Of a DNA stretch of 64,000 nt, positions 7,544 to 45,535 are shown in pieces. The notes below the pieces were generated by a model. The model was not told the DNA's origin. It searched no databases and saw only the letters and a list, made by a program, of their open reading frames with translations. Both the position numbers and the translations under genes were made by a program. The stretch's first letter is position 1. Each line of letters opens with the position of its first letter. This stretch comes from Escherichia coli (lineage in GTDB: Bacteria > Pseudomonadota > Gammaproteobacteria > Enterobacterales > Enterobacteriaceae): the NCBI RefSeq assembly GCF_016026235.1, contig NZ_CP065613.1. One strand, given 5' to 3'.

Positions 7544-8303
7544 CTGAGGAATCCCCAGAAAACAAGACAGGCATAGTGAGATGTGATCTAATTGATTGTG
7601 CTAACAATTTCAAGGAGATCACCACTATGCCTGCACGTTCATTATGCCAAAATTTCCTTAACAATATACTGGCCCCTTTGCATCTTTACCGTCAAAAATC
7701 ACTGATTGACGCAACTAATGCTGTAATAAATGGCGCTTCCCTCACACTTACCAGTATCGGGCGTCATTTAACCGGTACGGCATCAGTTAAAAACAAAATA
7801 AAGCGGGTGGATCGACTGTTGGGGAATCGACATTTGCAAAATGAGGTTTCCACCATTTTTCAGCGAATTACCCAAAAGATTACGCGGGGAATGTCTCGTG
7901 TTGTGATACTCATTGACTGGAGTGCTTATCATGCCTCTCGTTTTCAGCTTTTGCGGGCAAGCCTGGCATGTGACGGGCGTTCTTTACCGTTGATGAGTTG
8001 TGTCGTTCCATCATCACAGACAGCGAATGCAGATGTACATGAGCGTTTTCTGGAATCGCTTGCTGAGTGCTTTTCCCCCGGGACTGATGTCATTGTTATT
8101 ACAGATGCCGGTTTTCAGGGGCGATGGTTCCAACAGCTCCGCTCCCGTGGCTGGACCTATATTTGCCGGGTACTGGGCAATCATTATTACAATGTTGGTA
8201 ATGGCTGGGAAAAGGTGTCGGACTCAGGCACAAAAGCATCAACGACAGCAATTTATTTAGGTGAAGGCCTGCTGGGTCGAGATAAAAATGCACAACATGA
8301 AGG
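7544..8303 (+). mobile_element. IS10-like insertion sequence, copy 2, truncated (outside end plus 5' part of transposase), interrupted by IS4
   Basis: Begins CTGAGGAATCCCC 22 bp after the hok stop; inverted duplicate of 1-881; ends where the IS4 left end begins. Confidence 0.8.
7627..8303 (+). pseudogene. IS10-like transposase truncated after codon 225 by the IS4 insertion (the ORF reads 9 more codons into IS4)
   Basis: Identical to the 82-798 product up to ...DKNAQHEG, then diverges into the IS4 left end. Confidence 0.8.
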
Positions 8304-9729
8304 TAATGCCGATCAGTTAAGGATCAGTTGACCGATCCAGTGGCTGTGTAAGAATCCGGAAACGCTCACTTGTTTCCGGATTTTTTTATGCACATTGGAC
8401 AGGCTCTTGATCTGGTATCCCGTTACGATTCTCTGCGTAACCCACTGACTTCTCTGGGGGATTACCTCGACCCCGAACTCATCTCTCGTTGCCTTGCCGA
8501 ATCAGGTACTGTAACGCTACGCAAGCGCCGTCTTCCCCTCGAAATGATGGTCTGGTGTATTGTTGGCATGGCGCTTGAGCGTAAAGAACCTCTTCACCAG
8601 ATTGTGAATCGCCTGGACATCATGCTGCCGGGCAATCGCCCCTTCGTTGCCCCCAGTGCCGTTATTCAGGCCCGCCAGCGCCTGGGAAGTGAGGCTGTCC
8701 GCCGCGTGTTCACGAAAACAGCGCAGCTCTGGCATAACGCCACGCCGCATCCGCACTGGTGCGGCCTGACCCTGCTGGCCATCGATGGTGTGTTCTGGCG
8801 CACACCGGATACACCAGAGAACGATGCAGCCTTCCCCCGCCAGACACATGCCGGGAACCCGGCGCTCTACCCGCAGGTCAAAATGGTCTGCCAGATGGAA
8901 CTGACCAGCCATCTGCTGACGGCTGCAGCCTTCGGCACGATGAAGAACAGCGAAAATGAGCTTGCTGAGCAACTTATAGAACAAACCGGCGATAACACTC
9001 TGACGTTAATGGATAAAGGTTATTACTCACTGGGACTGTTAAATGCCTGGAGCCTGGCGGGAGAACACCGCCACTGGATGATACCTCTCAGAAAGGGAGC
9101 GCAATATGAAGAGCTCAGAAAACTGGGTAAAGGCGATCATCTGGTGAAGCTGAAAACCAGCCCGCAGGCACGAAAAAAGTGGCCGGGACTGGGAAATGAA
9201 GTGACAGCCCGCCTGCTGACCGTGACGCGCAAAGGAAAAGTCTGCCATCTGCTGACGTCGATGACGGACGCCATGCGCTTCCCCGGAGGAGAAATGGCGG
9301 ATCTGTACAGTCATCGCTGGGAAATCGAACTGGGATACAGGGAGATAAAACAGACGATGCAACTGAGCAGGCTGACGCTGAGAAGTAAAAAGCCGGAGCT
9401 TGTGGAGCAAGAGCTGTGGGGTGTCTTACTGGCTTATAATCTGGTGAGATATCAGATGATTAAAATGGCGGAACATCTGAAAGGTTACTGGCCGAATCAA
9501 CTGAGTTTCTCAGAATCATGCGGAATGGTGATGAGAATGCTGATGACATTGCAGGGCGCTTCACCGGGACGTATACCGGAGCTGATGCGCGATCTTGCAA
9601 GTATGGGACAACTTGTGAAATTACCGACGAGAAGGGGAAGGGCCTTCCCGAGAGTGGTAAAGGAGAGGCCCTGGAAATACCCCACAGCCCCGAAAAAGAG
9701 CCAGTCAGTTGCTTAACTGACTGGCATTA
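8304..9729 (+). mobile_element. IS4, complete 1426-bp element with imperfect terminal inverted repeats (TAATGCCGATCAGTTAAGG ... CTTAACTGACTGGCATTA)
   Basis: Length, terminal repeats and encoded InsG match IS4; flanks (ACAACATGAAGG left, CGACATTTGCCG right) are not a direct repeat. Confidence 0.9.
8388..9716 (+). CDS. insG: IS4 transposase InsG (442 aa)
   Basis: [36 protein letters not shown]... near-identical to E. coli IS4 transposase as remembered. Confidence 0.92.
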
Positions 9730-9764
9730 CGACATTTGCCGGGGTTATGAGCATAACGTAATGC

Positions 9765-18477: not shown

Positions 18478-19140
<663 letters not shown>

Positions 19141-19300
19141 TTACTCCGGAGAAACGTACACGCACATGTATACCTCTCCAGCGTAACTGAGAATAGTTCC
19201 AGTGAACACCTGTTAGCTAAAATAAATTCTGATTTGAGACTAATCTCCTAAAAATCATGAAATTAAATGCGAAATTTCAACTAACAGGCGTGAGTTCAAT

Positions 19301-19612
19301 TTAAAGACATTTAAATTCAATCACATAAAACTGTGTCTGACCGGGATAGATGTCGGCAATGACCTTTTTCAGTTCAGTCAGGGTCATATTTTCCTGCTCT
19401 GCATGTTTTTCCGTCAGCGTATCCAGCGTTACGGTTGAGGTTGCGGTGACTTCAATCGTGCAAAAATAACCGTCATCTTCAAAACGCCCGACACAAAGCA
19501 CATCACCCGTTTTGAAGTGCGATTCAGACTCGTCGCGGATGGTGATGGTTTTACGCCCAGCCAGAATGTCATCCTGGAAACGTTGAAAAAAAGTGATGTC
19601 GTTTGGCTGCAT
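19301..19612 (-). CDS. yqfB: ASCH-domain protein YqfB
   Basis: 103-aa product [27 protein letters not shown]... Confidence 0.88.
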
Positions 19613-19629
19613 GGTACTATTTCCTGTAA

Positions 19630-21090
<1,461 letters not shown>

Positions 21091-21100
21091 TTAGCCGATG

Positions 21101-21128
21101 TGCCTGATGCGATACGCTCATCAGGCCT
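21101..21128. repeat. REP-like palindrome after bglA
   Basis: TGCCTGATGCGATACGCTCATCAGGCC. Confidence 0.55.
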
Positions 21129-21210
21129 GGCACTCTTTTAATATATTGAGCTCGCAAGATTTTATATTACGCCTCAGCCGAAACACACAAAGCGCACTTT
21201 ATTAACAAGC

Positions 21211-21232
21211 TAAAAAGGCGCCGAAGCGCCTT
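21211..21232 (-). terminator. Rho-independent terminator of the gcvTHP operon
   Basis: Minus strand AAAGGCGCTTCGGCGCCTTT followed by a TTTT run. Confidence 0.75.
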
Positions 21233-21255
21233 TAGAAGATAGTCGAATCAGTGAA

Positions 21256-24129
21256 TTACTGGTATTCGCTAATCGGTACGCAGGAGCAGAACAGGTTACG
21301 GTCGCCGTAAACATCATCCAGACGTTTCACTGTCGGCCAGTATTTGTCTGCCACGCCTGCCGGGAATACCGCAACTTCACGGCTGTACGGATGCGCCCAC
21401 TCGGCGACCAGTTCGTTCTGAATGTGCGGCGCGTTCACCAGCGGGTTATCTTCCAGCGGCCAGACACCGGCTTTAACCTGGTCGATTTCTGCGCGGATAG
21501 CCAGCATCGCGTCGATAAAGCGATCCAGTTCCACTTTGCTTTCAGATTCAGTCGGTTCAACCATCAGCGTACCCGCCACCGGGAACGACATCGTCGGCGC
21601 GTGGAAACCGTAGTCGATCAGGCGCTTGGCAATATCCAGCTCGCTGATGCCGGTTTCTTCTTTCAGCGGGCGAATATCGAGAATACATTCGTGCGCCACG
21701 CGACCGTCGCGACCGGTATACAGCACCGGGAAGGCATCCTGCAGGCGGCTGGCAATATAGTTGGCGTTGAGGATTGCCACCTGGCTTGCTTTTTTCAGCC
21801 CTTCTGCGCCCATCATGCGGATGTACATCCAGCTGATTGGCAGGATAGAGGCGCTACCGAACGGTGCCGCAGAAACTGCGCCCTGACGGGTTAACATGCC
21901 TTCGATTTGCACCACGCTATGACCCGGTACAAACGGTGCCAGATGCGCTTTCACACCGATCGGTCCCATACCCGGACCACCACCGCCGTGCGGAATGCAG
22001 AAAGTTTTATGCAGGTTGAGGTGCGAAACGTCCGCGCCAATAAAGCCCGGCGAGGTGATGCCAACCTGGGCGTTCATGTTCGCGCCATCAAGGTAAACCT
22101 GACCGCCGAACTGATGCACGACTTCACACACTTCACGGATCGTTTCTTCATACACGCCGTGGGTAGAAGGATAAGTCACCATGATACAGGAGAGGTTATC
22201 GCCCGCCTGTTCCGCTTTCGCGCGCAGATCAGTCAGATCGATGTTGCCGTTTTTATCACACGCCACAACCACCACCTGCATTCCTGCCATATGTGCAGAA
22301 GCGGGGTTAGTTCCGTGCGCAGAAGCCGGGATCAGGCAGATATCGCGATGCCCTTCGTTGCGGCTTTCATGATAATGACGAATCGCCAGCAGGCCCGCGT
22401 ATTCGCCCTGTGCGCCGGAGTTCGGCTGCATACAAACGGCGTCGTAACCGGTCAGTTTCACCAGCCAGTCAGCCAGCTGCGCAATCATCTGCTGATAACC
22501 TTCAGCCTGTTCCGGCGGACAAAACGGGTGCAGTTCGGCAAATTCCGGCCAGGTGATTGGGATCATCTCGGCGGCGGCGTTCAGTTTCATGGTGCAGGAA
22601 CCCAGCGGGATCATCGCCTGATTCAGCGCCAGATCTTTACGCTCCAGCGAGTGCATATAGCGCATCATTTCGGTTTCGCTGTGGTAGCGATTAAACACCG
22701 GATGGGTGAGGATTTCGTCGTCGCGCAGCATCGCAGGCTGGATAGAGCGGCTGTCGTGAGCCACGTCTTTGTCCAGCGTGTCGATGTCCAGGCCGTGGTT
22801 ATCGCCCAGCAGCACGTTGAAAAGCTGCATTACGTTTTCACGCGTGGTTGTTTCATCAAGGGTGATCCCAACCGCGTTCAGAATATCGCTACGCAGGTTG
22901 ATTTCAGCCGCTTCGGCACGCGTCAGTACGCCCGCTTTGTCGGCCACTTCCACACACAAGGTGTCGAAATAGTGCGCATGGCGCAGTTTCAGACCTTTTT
23001 GTTGCAGGCCCGCCGCCAGGATATCGGTCAGACGGTGAATGCGGTTAGCGATACGTTTCAGGCCAACCGGGCCGTGATAAACGGCATACAGGCTGGCGAT
23101 GTTTGCCAGCAGTACCTGGGAAGTACAAATGTTGGAGTTCGCTTTCTCACGGCGGATATGTTGCTCGCGAGTCTGCATCGCCATGCGCAGCGCGGTATTG
23201 CCAGCTGCATCTTTCGATACACCGATAATACGGCCCGGCATTGAGCGTTTGTATTCATCTTTCGCCGCAAAGAATGCCGCGTGTGGGCCACCGTAGCCCA
23301 TCGGCACGCCGAAGCGTTGCGCCGAACCAAAAACAATATCCGCGCCCTGTTTACCCGGCGCAGTTAACAGCACCAGCGCCATAATATCGGCGGCAACGCT
23401 GACCACAATTTTGCGTGATTTCAGTTCGCTAATAAGCGCAGTGTAGTCGTGAATTTCACCGGTAGTGCCTACCTGCTGTAACAGCACGCCGAAGACGTCC
23501 TGATGGTCGAGCACTTTTTGCGCGTCATCGACAATCACTTCAAAACCAAAGGTTTCGGCACGAGTACGGACCACATCCAGCGTTTGCGGATGCACATCGG
23601 AAGCCACGAAGAAGCGGTTGGCATTTTTCAGTTTGCTGACGCGTTTCGCCATCGCCATTGCTTCGGCGGCAGCGGTGGCCTCGTCCAGAAGAGAAGCAGA
23701 GGCCATATCCAGTCCAGTCAAATCCAGCGTTACCTGCTGGAAGTTGAGCAGTGCTTCAAGGCGGCCCTGGGAGACTTCAGGTTGATACGGAGTGTACGCG
23801 GTATACCAGCCCGGATTTTCCAGCATGTTACGCAGGATAACCGGCGGTAGCTGCACGGCGGTGTAACCCATGCCGATGTAAGACGTGAAGCGTTTATTGC
23901 GACTGGCAATAGCCTTGAGTTCTGCCAGTGCGGCGTATTCGGTCGCCGGTGCGCCAACCTGCGGCGGGGTCGCAAGCTGAATATCTTTCGGTACAATCTG
24001 GCCGGTCAGCGCGTTTAACGATTGTGCGCCAACGGCATTCAGCATTTCTTGCTGTTGCGCGGCGTCCGGTCCGATATGGCGTTCAATAAAAGCGCCGCTG
24101 TTTTCAAGCTGGCTTAACGTCTGTGTCAT
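21256..24129 (-). CDS. gcvP: Glycine dehydrogenase (decarboxylating), P protein
   Basis: 957-aa PLP enzyme. Confidence 0.95.
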
Positions 24130-24247
24130 GAGCGATGGTTCCTGAAACGTGCAGTGAATTGTGAACCTCTCTCCTTACGAAGAGAGTGAGGGTGAGGCAT
24201 AAATTTTCCTCACCCTGATCCTCTCCCGCAGAAGAGGAATAAAGCCG

Positions 24248-24637
24248 TTACTCGTCTTCTAACAATGCTTCGTATGCGGTCGCATCCAGCAGTGATTCCA
24301 GTTCGCTTTCATCGCTGGCTTTGATTTTAAAGATCCAGCCACCTGCATACGGTTCGCTGTTCACCAGTTCCGGGGAATCGCTCAGTGCGTCGTTTACCGC
24401 CACGATTTCACCGCTTACTGGCGCATAAATGTCTGACGCCGCTTTTACTGATTCGGCAACCGCGCAGTCATCGCCCGCGCTAACCGTTGCGCCCACTTCC
24501 GGCAGGTCAACAAACACCATATCGCCTAACAGCTCCTGAGCATGTTCGGTAATACCAACGGTGTAAGTGCCGTCGGCTTCTTTACGCAGCCATTCGTGTT
24601 CTTTGCTGTATTTCAGTTCTGCTGGTACGTTGCTCAT
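24248..24637 (-). CDS. gcvH: Glycine cleavage system H protein
   Basis: 129 aa, lipoyl-lysine motif region. Confidence 0.93.
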
Positions 24638-24660
24638 CAATCAATCTCCAAAAAAGTAAA

Positions 24661-25755
24661 TCACGCGACGGCTTTGCCGTTACGCACAAAAACAGGTTTT
24701 GTCACTTTAACCGGCATTTCACGGTTGCGAATTTGCACAATCGCCGTTTCGCCAATACCTTCCGGCACGCGCGCCAGCGCAATGCTGTAACCCAGCGTCG
24801 GGGAGAAAGTACCGCTGGTGATAATGCCTTCATGCTGGTTGCCCTGCGCATCGGTAAAGCGTACCGGCAGTTCATTACGCAGCACGCCTTTTTCGGTCAT
24901 CACCAGACCAACCAGTTTTTCTGTACCATGCTCACGCTGCACTTCCAGGGCTTCACGACCGATAAAGTCACGATCTGCCGGTTCCCAGGCGATAGTCCAG
25001 CCCATGTTGGCGGCTAAAGGAGAAATAGTTTCGTCCATCTCCTGACCATAAAGATTCATGCCCGCTTCCAGACGCAGCGTGTCACGCGCGCCCAAGCCAC
25101 ATGGCTTAACACCCGCTTCCACCAGCGCACGCCAGAAATCGGCCGCTTTTTCATTGGGCAGCGCAATTTCATAGCCCGCTTCACCGGTATAACCAGTGGT
25201 GGCAATAAACAGATCGCCCGCCTGCACGCCAAAGAACGGTTTCATCCCTTCCACCGCCTGACGCTGGGCGTCATTAAACAGTGTGGCAGCTTTTGCCTGC
25301 GCATTCGGCCCTTGCACGGCAATCATGGAAAGGTCATCACGAACGGTAATTTCGATGCCGAAAGGTTCAGCGTGTTGGGTAATCCAGGAGAGGTCTTTTT
25401 CGCGGGTGGCGGAGTTAACAACGAGGCGGAAGAAATCTTCAGTAAAGTAGTAGACGATGAGGTCATCTATCACACCGCCAGAGGCATTCAACATCCCCGA
25501 GTAAAGGGCTTTGCCGCTTTTGGTGAGCTTCGCCACATCGTTCGCCAGCAGATAACGCAGAAACTCCCGGGTGCGGCTGCCGCGAAGATCGACGATGGTC
25601 ATATGTGACACATCAAACATTCCGGCATCGGTACGTACCGCATGATGTTCGTCGATTTGCGAACCGTAATGCAGCGGCATCATCCAGCCGTGGAAATCCA
25701 CCATGCGAGCGCCGCAAAGCGTGTGTTGTTCGTACAAAGGAGTCTGTTGTGCCAT
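24661..25755 (-). CDS. gcvT: Aminomethyltransferase, glycine cleavage T protein
   Basis: 364 aa from [24 protein letters not shown]...; ORF track start is upstream and out of register. Confidence 0.92.
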
Positions 25756-26130
25756 CTTGTCCTCATTGAATAAGCGGGGCTGACAACTTTTCATGGTGAA
25801 ATTATCACCACGAAACCCAGCATCGGAGCCACTCCCGGTCCCCAACGCAATCGTTCTCTTTTGCCTGAACTTACCACCGAAACAGACTGTTAACCATAAG
25901 GTAAAATTGATCATCACATTAGCTTATGGTTAAAAAATGCAAAAATCGCGACAGAATAAAAAACCAAAAAACACACCAGTTTCTATACAAAGATGATGTG
26001 ATGAGAAAGTCAATTTGAATAAGACAATATTAAGAGCTAAAAAAATGTCAAAAAACACTAAATCAAAAAATCATGGCATTAGAAAATATAATGCGAAAAC
26101 GGAGGTGAAATTAGTTTATTTCAAATGAGG
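25756..26130 (-). promoter_or_regulatory. gcvT upstream control region, A/T-rich (by analogy, site of the gcvTHP promoter and GcvA/Lrp/CRP/PurR sites; individual sites not mapped)
   Basis: Long A-rich leader upstream of gcvT; position homologous to the characterised gcv control region. Confidence 0.45.
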
Positions 26131-26134
26131 AAAA

Positions 26135-26158
26135 TCTCCCGGCGAAAAAACCGGGAGA
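26135..26158 (-). terminator. Rho-independent terminator after ubiI
   Basis: TCTCCCGG/CCGGGAGA stem, T-rich tail on the minus strand. Confidence 0.65.
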
Positions 26159-26201
26159 TGAAAGTGTGATGGGTATCAAATAAACAGCAGAAGAGAAATT
26201 T

Positions 26202-27404
26202 TTAGCGCAGCCATTCAGGCAAATCGTTTAATCCCATTGCCTGGCGGATAAGTTGTGGTTTAACGCCAGGAAGCGTGTCGGCCAGTTTCAAACCAATATC
26301 ACGCAGCAGTTTTTTCGCCGGATTGGTACCGGAAAACAGATCGCGGAATCCCTGCATACCAGCCAGCATCAGCGCCGCACTGTGCTTGCGGCTACGCTCA
26401 TACCGGCGCAGGTAAATGTACTGCCCGATGTCTTTCCCCTGACGATGCAACCGTTTCAGTTCAGCAATCAGCTCTGCAGCATCCATAAAGCCGAGATTTA
26501 CTCCCTGCCCCGCTAGCGGGTGAATGGTATGCGCGGCGTCGCCCACCAGCACCAGACGGTGCGCGGCAAACTGGCGCGCATAACGCCCCGTCAGTGGGAA
26601 CACCTGACGCGCGCTCTCAACCTTGCATAAGCCCAGGCGATTATCAAAAGCGATATTTAACGCGCGATTAAATTCATCTTCACTTGCCTGCTGCATCCGC
26701 TGCGCTTCCTCTGGCGACAGTGACCAGACAATTGAGCAAAGATGCGGATCGCTAAGCGGTAAAAAGGCCAGAATGCCTTCGCCATGGAAAACCTGCCGCG
26801 CCACCGCATCATGCGGTTCTTCCGTGCGAATGGTCGCTACCAGCGCGTGATGCTGATAATCCCAGAAAGTCAGCGGAATATCTGCTTTGTTGCGCAACCA
26901 GGAATTAGCACCGTCCGCGCCAATCACCAGACGCGCCGTTAACATGCTGCCATCTTTCAGCGTCAGGAAAGTTTCATTTTCTCCCCAGGCGACCTGCTGT
27001 AATTCTGCGGGGGCCAACAGAGTGATATCTGACGACTGCTGCGCTTTGTTCCACAGCGCGTAGTGAATCACTGAGTTTTCAACGATATGCCCAAGATGGC
27101 TATAGCCCATGCTTTGATCGTCAAACGAAATGTGACCAAAACTGTCTTTGTCCCACACTTCCATACCGTGATAACAACTGGCCCTACGAGAGAGAATGTC
27201 CTGCCAGACGCCAAGACGGGTGAGTAATTTTTCGCTGGCGGCATTGATAGCCGAAACGCGCAGTTGTGGTGGTGCATCCGCCGCCAGAGGTTCCGGTACG
27301 CGCTGCTCCAGTACGGCAACGCGTAAGCCGCTCCCCTGTAAGCCGCAGGCAACCGCCAGCCCCACCATGCCGCCACCAACAATGGCTACATCAACACTTT
27401 GCAT
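26202..27404 (-). CDS. ubiI: 2-octaprenylphenol hydroxylase UbiI (VisC)
   Basis: 400-aa FAD monooxygenase, VGGGMVG motif. Confidence 0.93.
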   Translation of the reverse strand: MQSVDVAIVGGGMVGLAVACGLQGSGLRVAVLEQRVPEPLAADAPPQLRVSAINAASEKLLTRLGVWQDILSRRASCYHGMEVWDKDSFGHISFDDQSMGYSHLGHIVENSVIHYALWNKAQQSSDITLLAPAELQQVAWGENETFLTLKDGSMLTARLVIGADGANSWLRNKADIPLTFWDYQHHALVATIRTEEPHDAVARQVFHGEGILAFLPLSDPHLCSIVWSLSPEEAQRMQQASEDEFNRALNIAFDNRLGLCKVESARQVFPLTGRYARQFAAHRLVLVGDAAHTIHPLAGQGVNLGFMDAAELIAELKRLHRQGKDIGQYIYLRRYERSRKHSAALMLAGMQGFRDLFSGTNPAKKLLRDIGLKLADTLPGVKPQLIRQAMGLNDLPEWLR

Positions 27405-45436: not shown

Positions 45437-45535
45437 GCCGGATGCGGCGTGAACGCCTTATCCGGCCTACAAAAACCTGCAAATTCAATATATTGCAGGA
45501 TACGTGTAGGCCTGATAAGCGTAGCGCATCAGGCA
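45437..45535. repeat. BIME: two REP units flanking a central palindrome
   Basis: GCCGGATGCGGCGTGAACGCCTTATCCGGCCTAC ... CCTGCAAATTCAATATATTGCAGG ... GTAGGCCTGATAAGCGTAGCGCATCAGGCA. Confidence 0.8.

Follow-up and report, generated by a model that had tools for sequence, protein, structure and literature searches.

The Escherichia coli genome analysed here carries bglA and gcvP as neighbouring convergent genes, and the question raised by this locus is how it came to be without ygfF, the SDR family oxidoreductase gene that K-12 has between the two. An earlier note on this DNA had left the choice open between a loss from this strain and a gain by K-12. In the window, the whole 64-kb stretch of DNA that was analysed, the bglA stop codon TAA lies at 21088-21090 on the plus strand and the gcvP stop codon (TTA on the plus strand, gcvP being read from the minus strand) at 21256-21258. 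Placing the two stop codons confirmed both the length and the coordinates that had been given for the spacer, which is exactly 165 bp long (Table 1).

Table 1 Features of the bglA-gcvP spacer and its flanking genes (positions of the window)
Feature	Position	Strand	Basis or remark
bglA (6-phospho-beta-glucosidase A)	19657..21090	+	ORF list; RefSeq annotation of the identical FDAARGOS_943 sequence
Spacer, ygfF-less short allele	21091..21255		bglA-gcvP interval
TTAGCCGATGT, left side of the junction, flank from the bglA-side REP of ygfF alleles	21091..21101	+	Allele comparison
y-type REP palindrome GCCTGATGCGATACGCTCATCAGGCCTGGCA, first BIME-1 unit	21102..21132	+	Inverted repeat; REP regular-expression match; fold; alignment
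BIME-1 long linker L, core AATATATTGA at 21140-21149	21133..21166	+	Alignment; core search
z1 REP stump TTACGCCTCAGCCGAAACA	21167..21185	+	Alignments with intact copies
Conserved sequence CACAAAGCGCACTTTATTAACAAGCTAA between BIME and terminator	21186..21213	+	Comparison of alleles
gcvP intrinsic terminator (predicted)	21205..21236	-	Stem-loop 21214-21233; U-rich tail on the minus strand
22 bases up to the gcvP stop codon	21234..21255
gcvP (glycine decarboxylase, 957 aa), last gene of gcvTHP	21256..24129	-	ORF list; RefSeq annotation

The absence of ygfF from this interval was borne out by annotation and by searches of the window as well as by the spacer length. The sequence of E. coli FDAARGOS_943 is 100% identical to that of the window, and RefSeq annotates no feature between its bglA and gcvP, which are direct neighbours; the next-nearest lineages were O145:H28 strains at 99.0% identity over 10 kb. 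The open reading frames of the spacer are only 21-37 codons long, and none between bglA and gcvP fits the ygfF model (NF007273 / PRK09730, SDR family oxidoreductase), for which the K-12 protein gives a reference score of 531.6 bits. A ygfF remnant was found nowhere in the 64-kb window, either by tblastn with YgfF, which returned no match better than E = 4.7, or by blastn with the K-12-specific DNA. An Rfam scan of 19000-26500 placed no family in the spacer and gave one sub-threshold chance match elsewhere.

A separate region of the window also varied among genomes. FDAARGOS_943 and most other genomes match the window as a single piece only from 9730, while the few genomes that match it from 8303 are annotated with an IS4-family transposase. 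This suggests that the region of approximately 8303-9730 is a polymorphic IS4 copy, or that the matching piece is split at a repeated IS.

K-12 does have ygfF at this site, as the earlier note had stated: the gene order in MG1655 is bglA (b2901), ygfF (b2902) and gcvP (b2903), with ygfF on the gcvP strand, and the order in C600 is identical. The flanks of the window and K-12 are 98.2% identical on the bglA side and 98.6% on the gcvP side. On the gcvP side homology runs through the terminator hairpin and then collapses, and on the bglA side it extends up to the stop codon and more loosely on into a REP. The terminator hairpin is common to both, as is a REP that immediately follows bglA and has a related flank. 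Approximately 960 bp are found only in K-12 (two G-rich repeats, ygfF with its upstream region and the remainder of the bglA-side REP) and approximately 70-90 bp only in the window, where a decayed BIME-1 is situated instead. Alleles of the K-12 type, including the ygfF alleles at loci L088, L089 and L093, have kept only GATGACAAAGTAC (gcvP-sense strand) beside the hairpin, and between ygfF and the gcvP terminator they carry two inverted G-rich repeats, CCCCTCGCCC...GGGGTGAGGG (locus L001, 2885-2990), which occupy the place of the BIME in other alleles. PMC5100583 lists these repeats as the G-quadruplex-hairpin elements HPGQ 32 and 33.

The spacer had been described as holding a REP unit and the gcvP terminator. 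A regular-expression search for REPs located the y-type REP GCCTGATGCGATACGCTCATCAGGCC at 21102-21127, with perfect 8-bp arms GCCTGATG (21102-21109) and CATCAGGC (21119-21126), a predicted fold of -17.9 kcal/mol (z -3.0), and a tail of CTGG instead of the usual CTAC. This unit aligns with the y REP at 45510-45534, which is part of an intact BIME-1 on the minus strand of the window (45437-45534) that has a y REP, an L linker with AATATATTGA and a z1 REP and served as an internal reference. BIME-1 elements consist of a y REP, a long L linker, frequently with an IHF site, and a z1 REP (PMC3333891). The conserved long linker is present in the spacer, its core AATATATTGA being found in the window only twice, at 21140 and at 45485 within the intact BIME-1, where 0.12 occurrences would be expected, and by resemblance to BIME-1 elements the linker at 21133-21166 holds a putative IHF site. 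The z1 REP is incomplete, as only its distal arm is left (TTACGCCTCAGCCGAAACA versus TCACGCCGCATCCGGCA) and the proximal (left) arm falls in a gap of approximately 15 bp (9 + 6 alignment columns) relative to intact copies; the stump is identical in five short alleles sampled from different lineages. Between 21102 and 21200 the spacer matches the intact BIME-1 at 74 of 92 positions, with an alignment score of 72 compared with at most 20 in 500 shuffles. Judged by its sequence, the spacer element is a decayed and not an intact BIME-1, also called RIB/RIP, so that the REP noted earlier is real but is the y REP of this element rather than a lone unit. The sequence that follows the BIME, CACAAAGCGCACTTTATTAACAAGCTAA, is common to E. 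albertii, Salmonella and a third E. coli allele described below, and in part (GATGACAAAGTAC) to K-12. Known roles of REPs, summarised in PMC3333891, include mRNA 3' end protection and transcription pausing, and by analogy the y REP hairpin, 11 nt after the bglA stop codon, could protect the 3' end of the bglA mRNA or cause transcription to pause.

The terminator was likewise supported. On the minus strand a hairpin that starts 22 nt past the gcvP stop codon reads AAAGGCGC-UUCG-GCGCCUUU and then UUAGCUUGUU, giving an 8-bp stem, a UUCG loop and the U run of an intrinsic (Rho-independent) terminator for gcvTHP. Citrobacter, Kluyvera, Salmonella and E. albertii have this very hairpin after gcvP; compensatory changes were seen in seven of nine predicted stem pairs across 14 sequences from different genera, and further genera have a different G+C-rich hairpin with a T run at the same place after gcvP. 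A rule-based promoter and terminator scanner found no promoter-like site in the spacer and called no terminator there, probably as part of the U run was counted into the stem. The terminator is nevertheless clear because of the folding and the comparison across genera. It is placed where it would end gcvTHP transcripts. Two convergent transcription units are separated by the spacer.

How common the arrangement is was assessed in 5,426 complete RefSeq E. coli genomes, a biased set and not a population sample. In this set ygfF was present in 3,057 genomes and a short spacer of the window type in 2,347 (approximately 43%), and a further 17 genomes, plus one mis-assembled (WB61), carried a third allele with a PF13557 transporter gene. 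The three classes total 5,422 of the 5,425 genomes holding the locus and are therefore essentially exclusive. The short-spacer class was made up of 1,915 genomes at least 95% identical to the window, 421 at 80-90% and 11 in the identity band of strain HMDUC-17, and its carriers include O157:H7, O145:H28, ST95-32 (ST95, B2) and CE10. In these and many other genomes the junction, the BIME-1 remnant, the z-REP deletion and the terminator are as in the window; they differ from it by point differences only (95-98% identity), with the 421-genome subgroup at approximately 86%. Carriers of ygfF include K-12 derivatives, O111:H8 and O103:H2, and YgfF proteins of Shigella flexneri and S. boydii were also found. 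The short allele presumably corresponds roughly to phylogroups B2, E and F and the ygfF allele to A, B1 and Shigella; the 86% variant, found in small genomes, may belong to phylogroup A. Presence and absence of ygfF is an ordinary two-state polymorphism that is common across strains and not peculiar to this one.

The same counts bear on whether ygfF was simply collapsed out of the sequence by an assembly or sequencing artefact. No point in favour of this emerged, and the 165-bp spacer recurs in 2,347 complete genomes that are independent of one another, O157:H7, O145:H28, ST95 and CE10 among them. A real assembly artefact at the locus looks quite different: in WB61, runs of N (locus L090, 2630-2650) join the transporter gene to a truncated gcvP, and the two are annotated as pseudogenes. 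The chance that the short spacer is an artefact is accordingly negligible. WB61 was also considered as an independent deletion into gcvP and was rejected, the N runs being an assembly gap.

The direction of change was read from the gene order in other genera. A scan with GcvP, using one genome per species, gave at least 80 loci, among which the genus Escherichia was represented by E. albertii and one divergent Escherichia (no E. fergusonii and no named cryptic clades). Among the loci listed, ygfF follows gcvP within approximately 60-80 bp in Citrobacter (three species), Kluyvera, Phytobacter, Pseudocitrobacter, Pluralibacter, Siccibacter and several Enterobacter, and is similarly close in further Enterobacteriaceae, Pantoea, Erwinia and one Yersinia. 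It lies further downstream of gcvP at seven loci (L004, L005, L020, L023, L029, L039 and L051), and a convergent bglA comes after ygfF throughout the Enterobacteriaceae and Pantoea listed. The gcvP-ygfF spacer of Citrobacter sp. FP75, C. youngae and Kluyvera has the sequence ...CTATCTTTTAAAGGCGCTTCGGCGCCTTTATTTTTTGGGAGAAA..ATG, where CTATCTTTTAAAGGCGCTTCGGCGCCTTTATTTTTTGGGAGAAA is the terminator hairpin of the window and then directly the ygfF ribosome-binding site. Since ygfF directly follows the gcvP terminator in many genera of the Enterobacterales, this arrangement is ancestral and the window carries a loss.

The converse reading starts from an ancestral short spacer into which ygfF was inserted in K-12 and its relatives. 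It draws on nothing beyond the bare presence and absence pattern within E. coli, and against it stands the finding that many genera have ygfF at this site, in this orientation and directly behind the same gcvP terminator hairpin. E. coli YgfF is moreover 76-85% identical to the orthologues of other Enterobacteriaceae genera and 64-77% identical to those of Erwiniaceae and Yersinia, accompanied by BglA and GcvP, and the series has no foreign-looking jump. A gain by K-12 is therefore very improbable, and of the two possibilities first offered only the loss stood up to the outgroup synteny.

The manner of loss can be read in part from the junction. The window reads GAGAATCTGTAATTAGCCGATGT / GCCTGATGCGATACGC across the junction and continues as GAGAATCTGTAATTAGCCGATGT / GCCTGATGCG..., while a ygfF allele from an unclassified Escherichia (L091) reads GAGAATCTGTGATTAGCTGATGT / GCCGGATGCAACGCC. 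The 11-base left flank in the window is like that of the ygfF alleles L091 and L088 and unlike that of the third allele or of other REPs in the window. To the right of the junction the window resembles its own intact BIME-1 and, at 89-92% identity over 85-93 bp, the module of BIME and terminator in the third allele, and from the REP body rightwards it is unlike the bglA-side REP of ygfF alleles. A left flank from a ygfF allele and a right part from a BIME module place the join inside the left arm of a REP, at GCC(G/T)GATGC. Such a join is the expected product when the DNA between two REPs in direct orientation is deleted. We infer from this composition that a REP-to-REP deletion is the likeliest mechanism; it may have involved a single chromosome, or an incoming allele and a resident one. 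Because the same join and z-REP stump occur in the window, ST95, O157:H7, HMDUC-17 and the 86% variant, the short allele probably arose once, in one old event.

On this evidence the locus began, in ancestral Enterobacteriaceae, as gcvP, its intrinsic terminator, ygfF in the same direction with its ribosome-binding site directly after the terminator T run, and then the convergent bglA. In Escherichia a BIME-1 (y REP, L linker and z1 REP) would have arrived beside the terminator, with a further REP sitting between ygfF and bglA. A single event would then have joined the left arm of the bglA-side REP to the left arm of the BIME y REP through the microhomology GCC(G/T)GATGC, removing ygfF and its upstream region (approximately 0.9-1 kb). 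What remains is the bglA stop codon, 11 bases of the old flank, the BIME-1, decayed since, the terminator and gcvP. The convergent bglA and gcvP now have one spacer in common, whose hairpin would end gcvTHP transcripts. The short allele has spread or persisted to reach its present share of approximately 43% of complete E. coli genomes. We assign a probability of roughly 0.85 to this overall explanation, in which the window carries a ygfF-null allele produced by one REP-anchored loss.

Among the E. coli and Escherichia alleles examined, no ygfF allele with a BIME-1 in the orientation of the window was found. The only ygfF allele with a BIME was that of L091, whose flanks are 94-95% identical to those of the window. 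Its gcvP-ygfF spacer of 405 bp (2096-2500) contains a tandem duplication of the terminator hairpin plus BIME-1, the BIME being inverted relative to the window, and its third hairpin still shows the hairpin-RBS-ATG junction of the ancestral arrangement.

The bglA end of the locus has its own variation. The protein ends in GENL before the stop codon in the window and in GEKL in K-12. The possibility that the deletion created the ENL ending was rejected, as the ygfF-bearing L088 and L091 also end in ENL. HMDUC-17 and the 86% variant have a K-12-like bglA end (EKL), which argues for later recombination in or near the REP. In the HMDUC-17 short allele (L087, 566-775) a K-12-like bglA end and REP flank are joined to the usual BIME, which would make it a recombinant or else another variant of the junction.

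In the third allele a gene for a 297-298-aa Phenol_MetA_deg (PF13557) outer-membrane 'transporter' stands in place of ygfF. It was found in the 17 complete E. coli genomes mentioned above, the divergent Escherichia (L058; flanks 94% identical to the window, with an ORF scoring 50.2 bits against PF13557), E. albertii and Salmonella enterica (loci L058 12875-14270, L083 2501-3895, L098 1038-2437 and L095 3546-4941). S. enterica has the same gcvP-transporter-bglA arrangement, with 2,745 member sequences in the protein cluster. Upstream of the gene are approximately 450 bp of AT-rich DNA, and the allele has a decayed BIME and the same terminator as well. It resembles the window in lacking ygfF and in the terminator and homologous BIME remnant adjoining gcvP, and differs from it in the transporter gene, the AT-rich DNA and a different hairpin after bglA, all of which the window is without.

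These likenesses raise a two-step route to the short spacer, in which ygfF was replaced or lost in a transporter allele and the transporter was then deleted. The gcvP-proximal 85-93 bp of the spacer have as their closest relatives third-allele sequences, which are without ygfF and whose BIME has the same orientation as that of the window, and megablast alignments run 69 bp into short alleles, compared with only 46 bp for ygfF alleles. In the Citrobacter freundii complex both genes occur in tandem as gcvP-ygfF-transporter-bglA (L096 2850-4903; L097 1961-4014), so that an ancestor with both, and differential loss from it, is possible. The bglA side tells against this route: the flank TTAGCCGATGT is like that of ygfF alleles and unlike the third allele, which in E. 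coli, Salmonella and E. albertii has the hairpin GTTACCCGCCAGTCGGCGGGTAAC right after bglA. The window moreover contains no PF13557 transporter gene or remnant, and its y REP and L core are better preserved than those of the E. coli third alleles. We consider two successive losses unlikely. No ancestor with both ygfF and a BIME in the orientation of the window is needed if, alternatively, an incoming third allele recombined with a resident ygfF allele, by homology within gcvP at one end and anchored at a REP at the other.

Exchange of this patch between species is itself suggested by sequence identity. The third alleles of E. coli E7-1N7 (L083) and Salmonella (L095) show 94.4% identity across 1.4 kb that includes non-coding DNA, and identity falls to 80-86% in the distal gcvP and bglA flanks, which suggests interspecies recombination. 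A broader and rather doubtful view is that the bglA-gcvP interval is a REP/BIME-bounded cassette-exchange site, at which, in Escherichia, ygfF, the PF13557 outer-membrane channel or nothing is kept by selection and swapped by REP-anchored recombination, including import from Salmonella. If so, the null allele of the window would be a product of exchange and not of simple decay. The preferred explanation remains a single REP-anchored loss of ygfF.

Some E. coli that still carry ygfF are also losing it. Pseudogene copies of ygfF lie at L089 (1201-1944, stop at codon 41) and L088 (1267-1943). The change of codon E41 to a stop was traced by an exact 61-mer common to 195 complete genomes, and ygfF is frameshifted in an ST536 strain. 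The gene is decaying in these lineages, and the stop-codon and frameshift copies show that it is dispensable in E. coli; we know of no essential role for it. The consequence of the short allele is a strain without YgfF, which is of little importance as ygfF is an accessory gene of E. coli. The enzyme is an SDR protein for which glucose 1-dehydrogenase activity has been reported in vitro (PMC10645960), and it has been placed in the SDR63C subgroup (PMC12506659).

The absence of ygfF from approximately 43% of complete genomes is already visible in public annotation, and the papers searched contained none on whether the gene is present or absent. What the reading of the REP junction and the picture of three alleles add is small, and no new kind of feature is described. 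K-12 is unrepresentative at the bglA-gcvP locus, where a single genus has three segregating alleles and the loss of a gene at REP/BIME repeats is neatly illustrated. REP/BIME-flanked gene loss was described in a 2012 study (PMC3333891) for another locus and another gene. Unlike that case, the bglA-gcvP locus involves no RAYT transposase as far as seen. The mechanism in the 2012 study was likewise inferred, and, as in the window, the gene there is cleanly missing in part of the species while the repeats remain.
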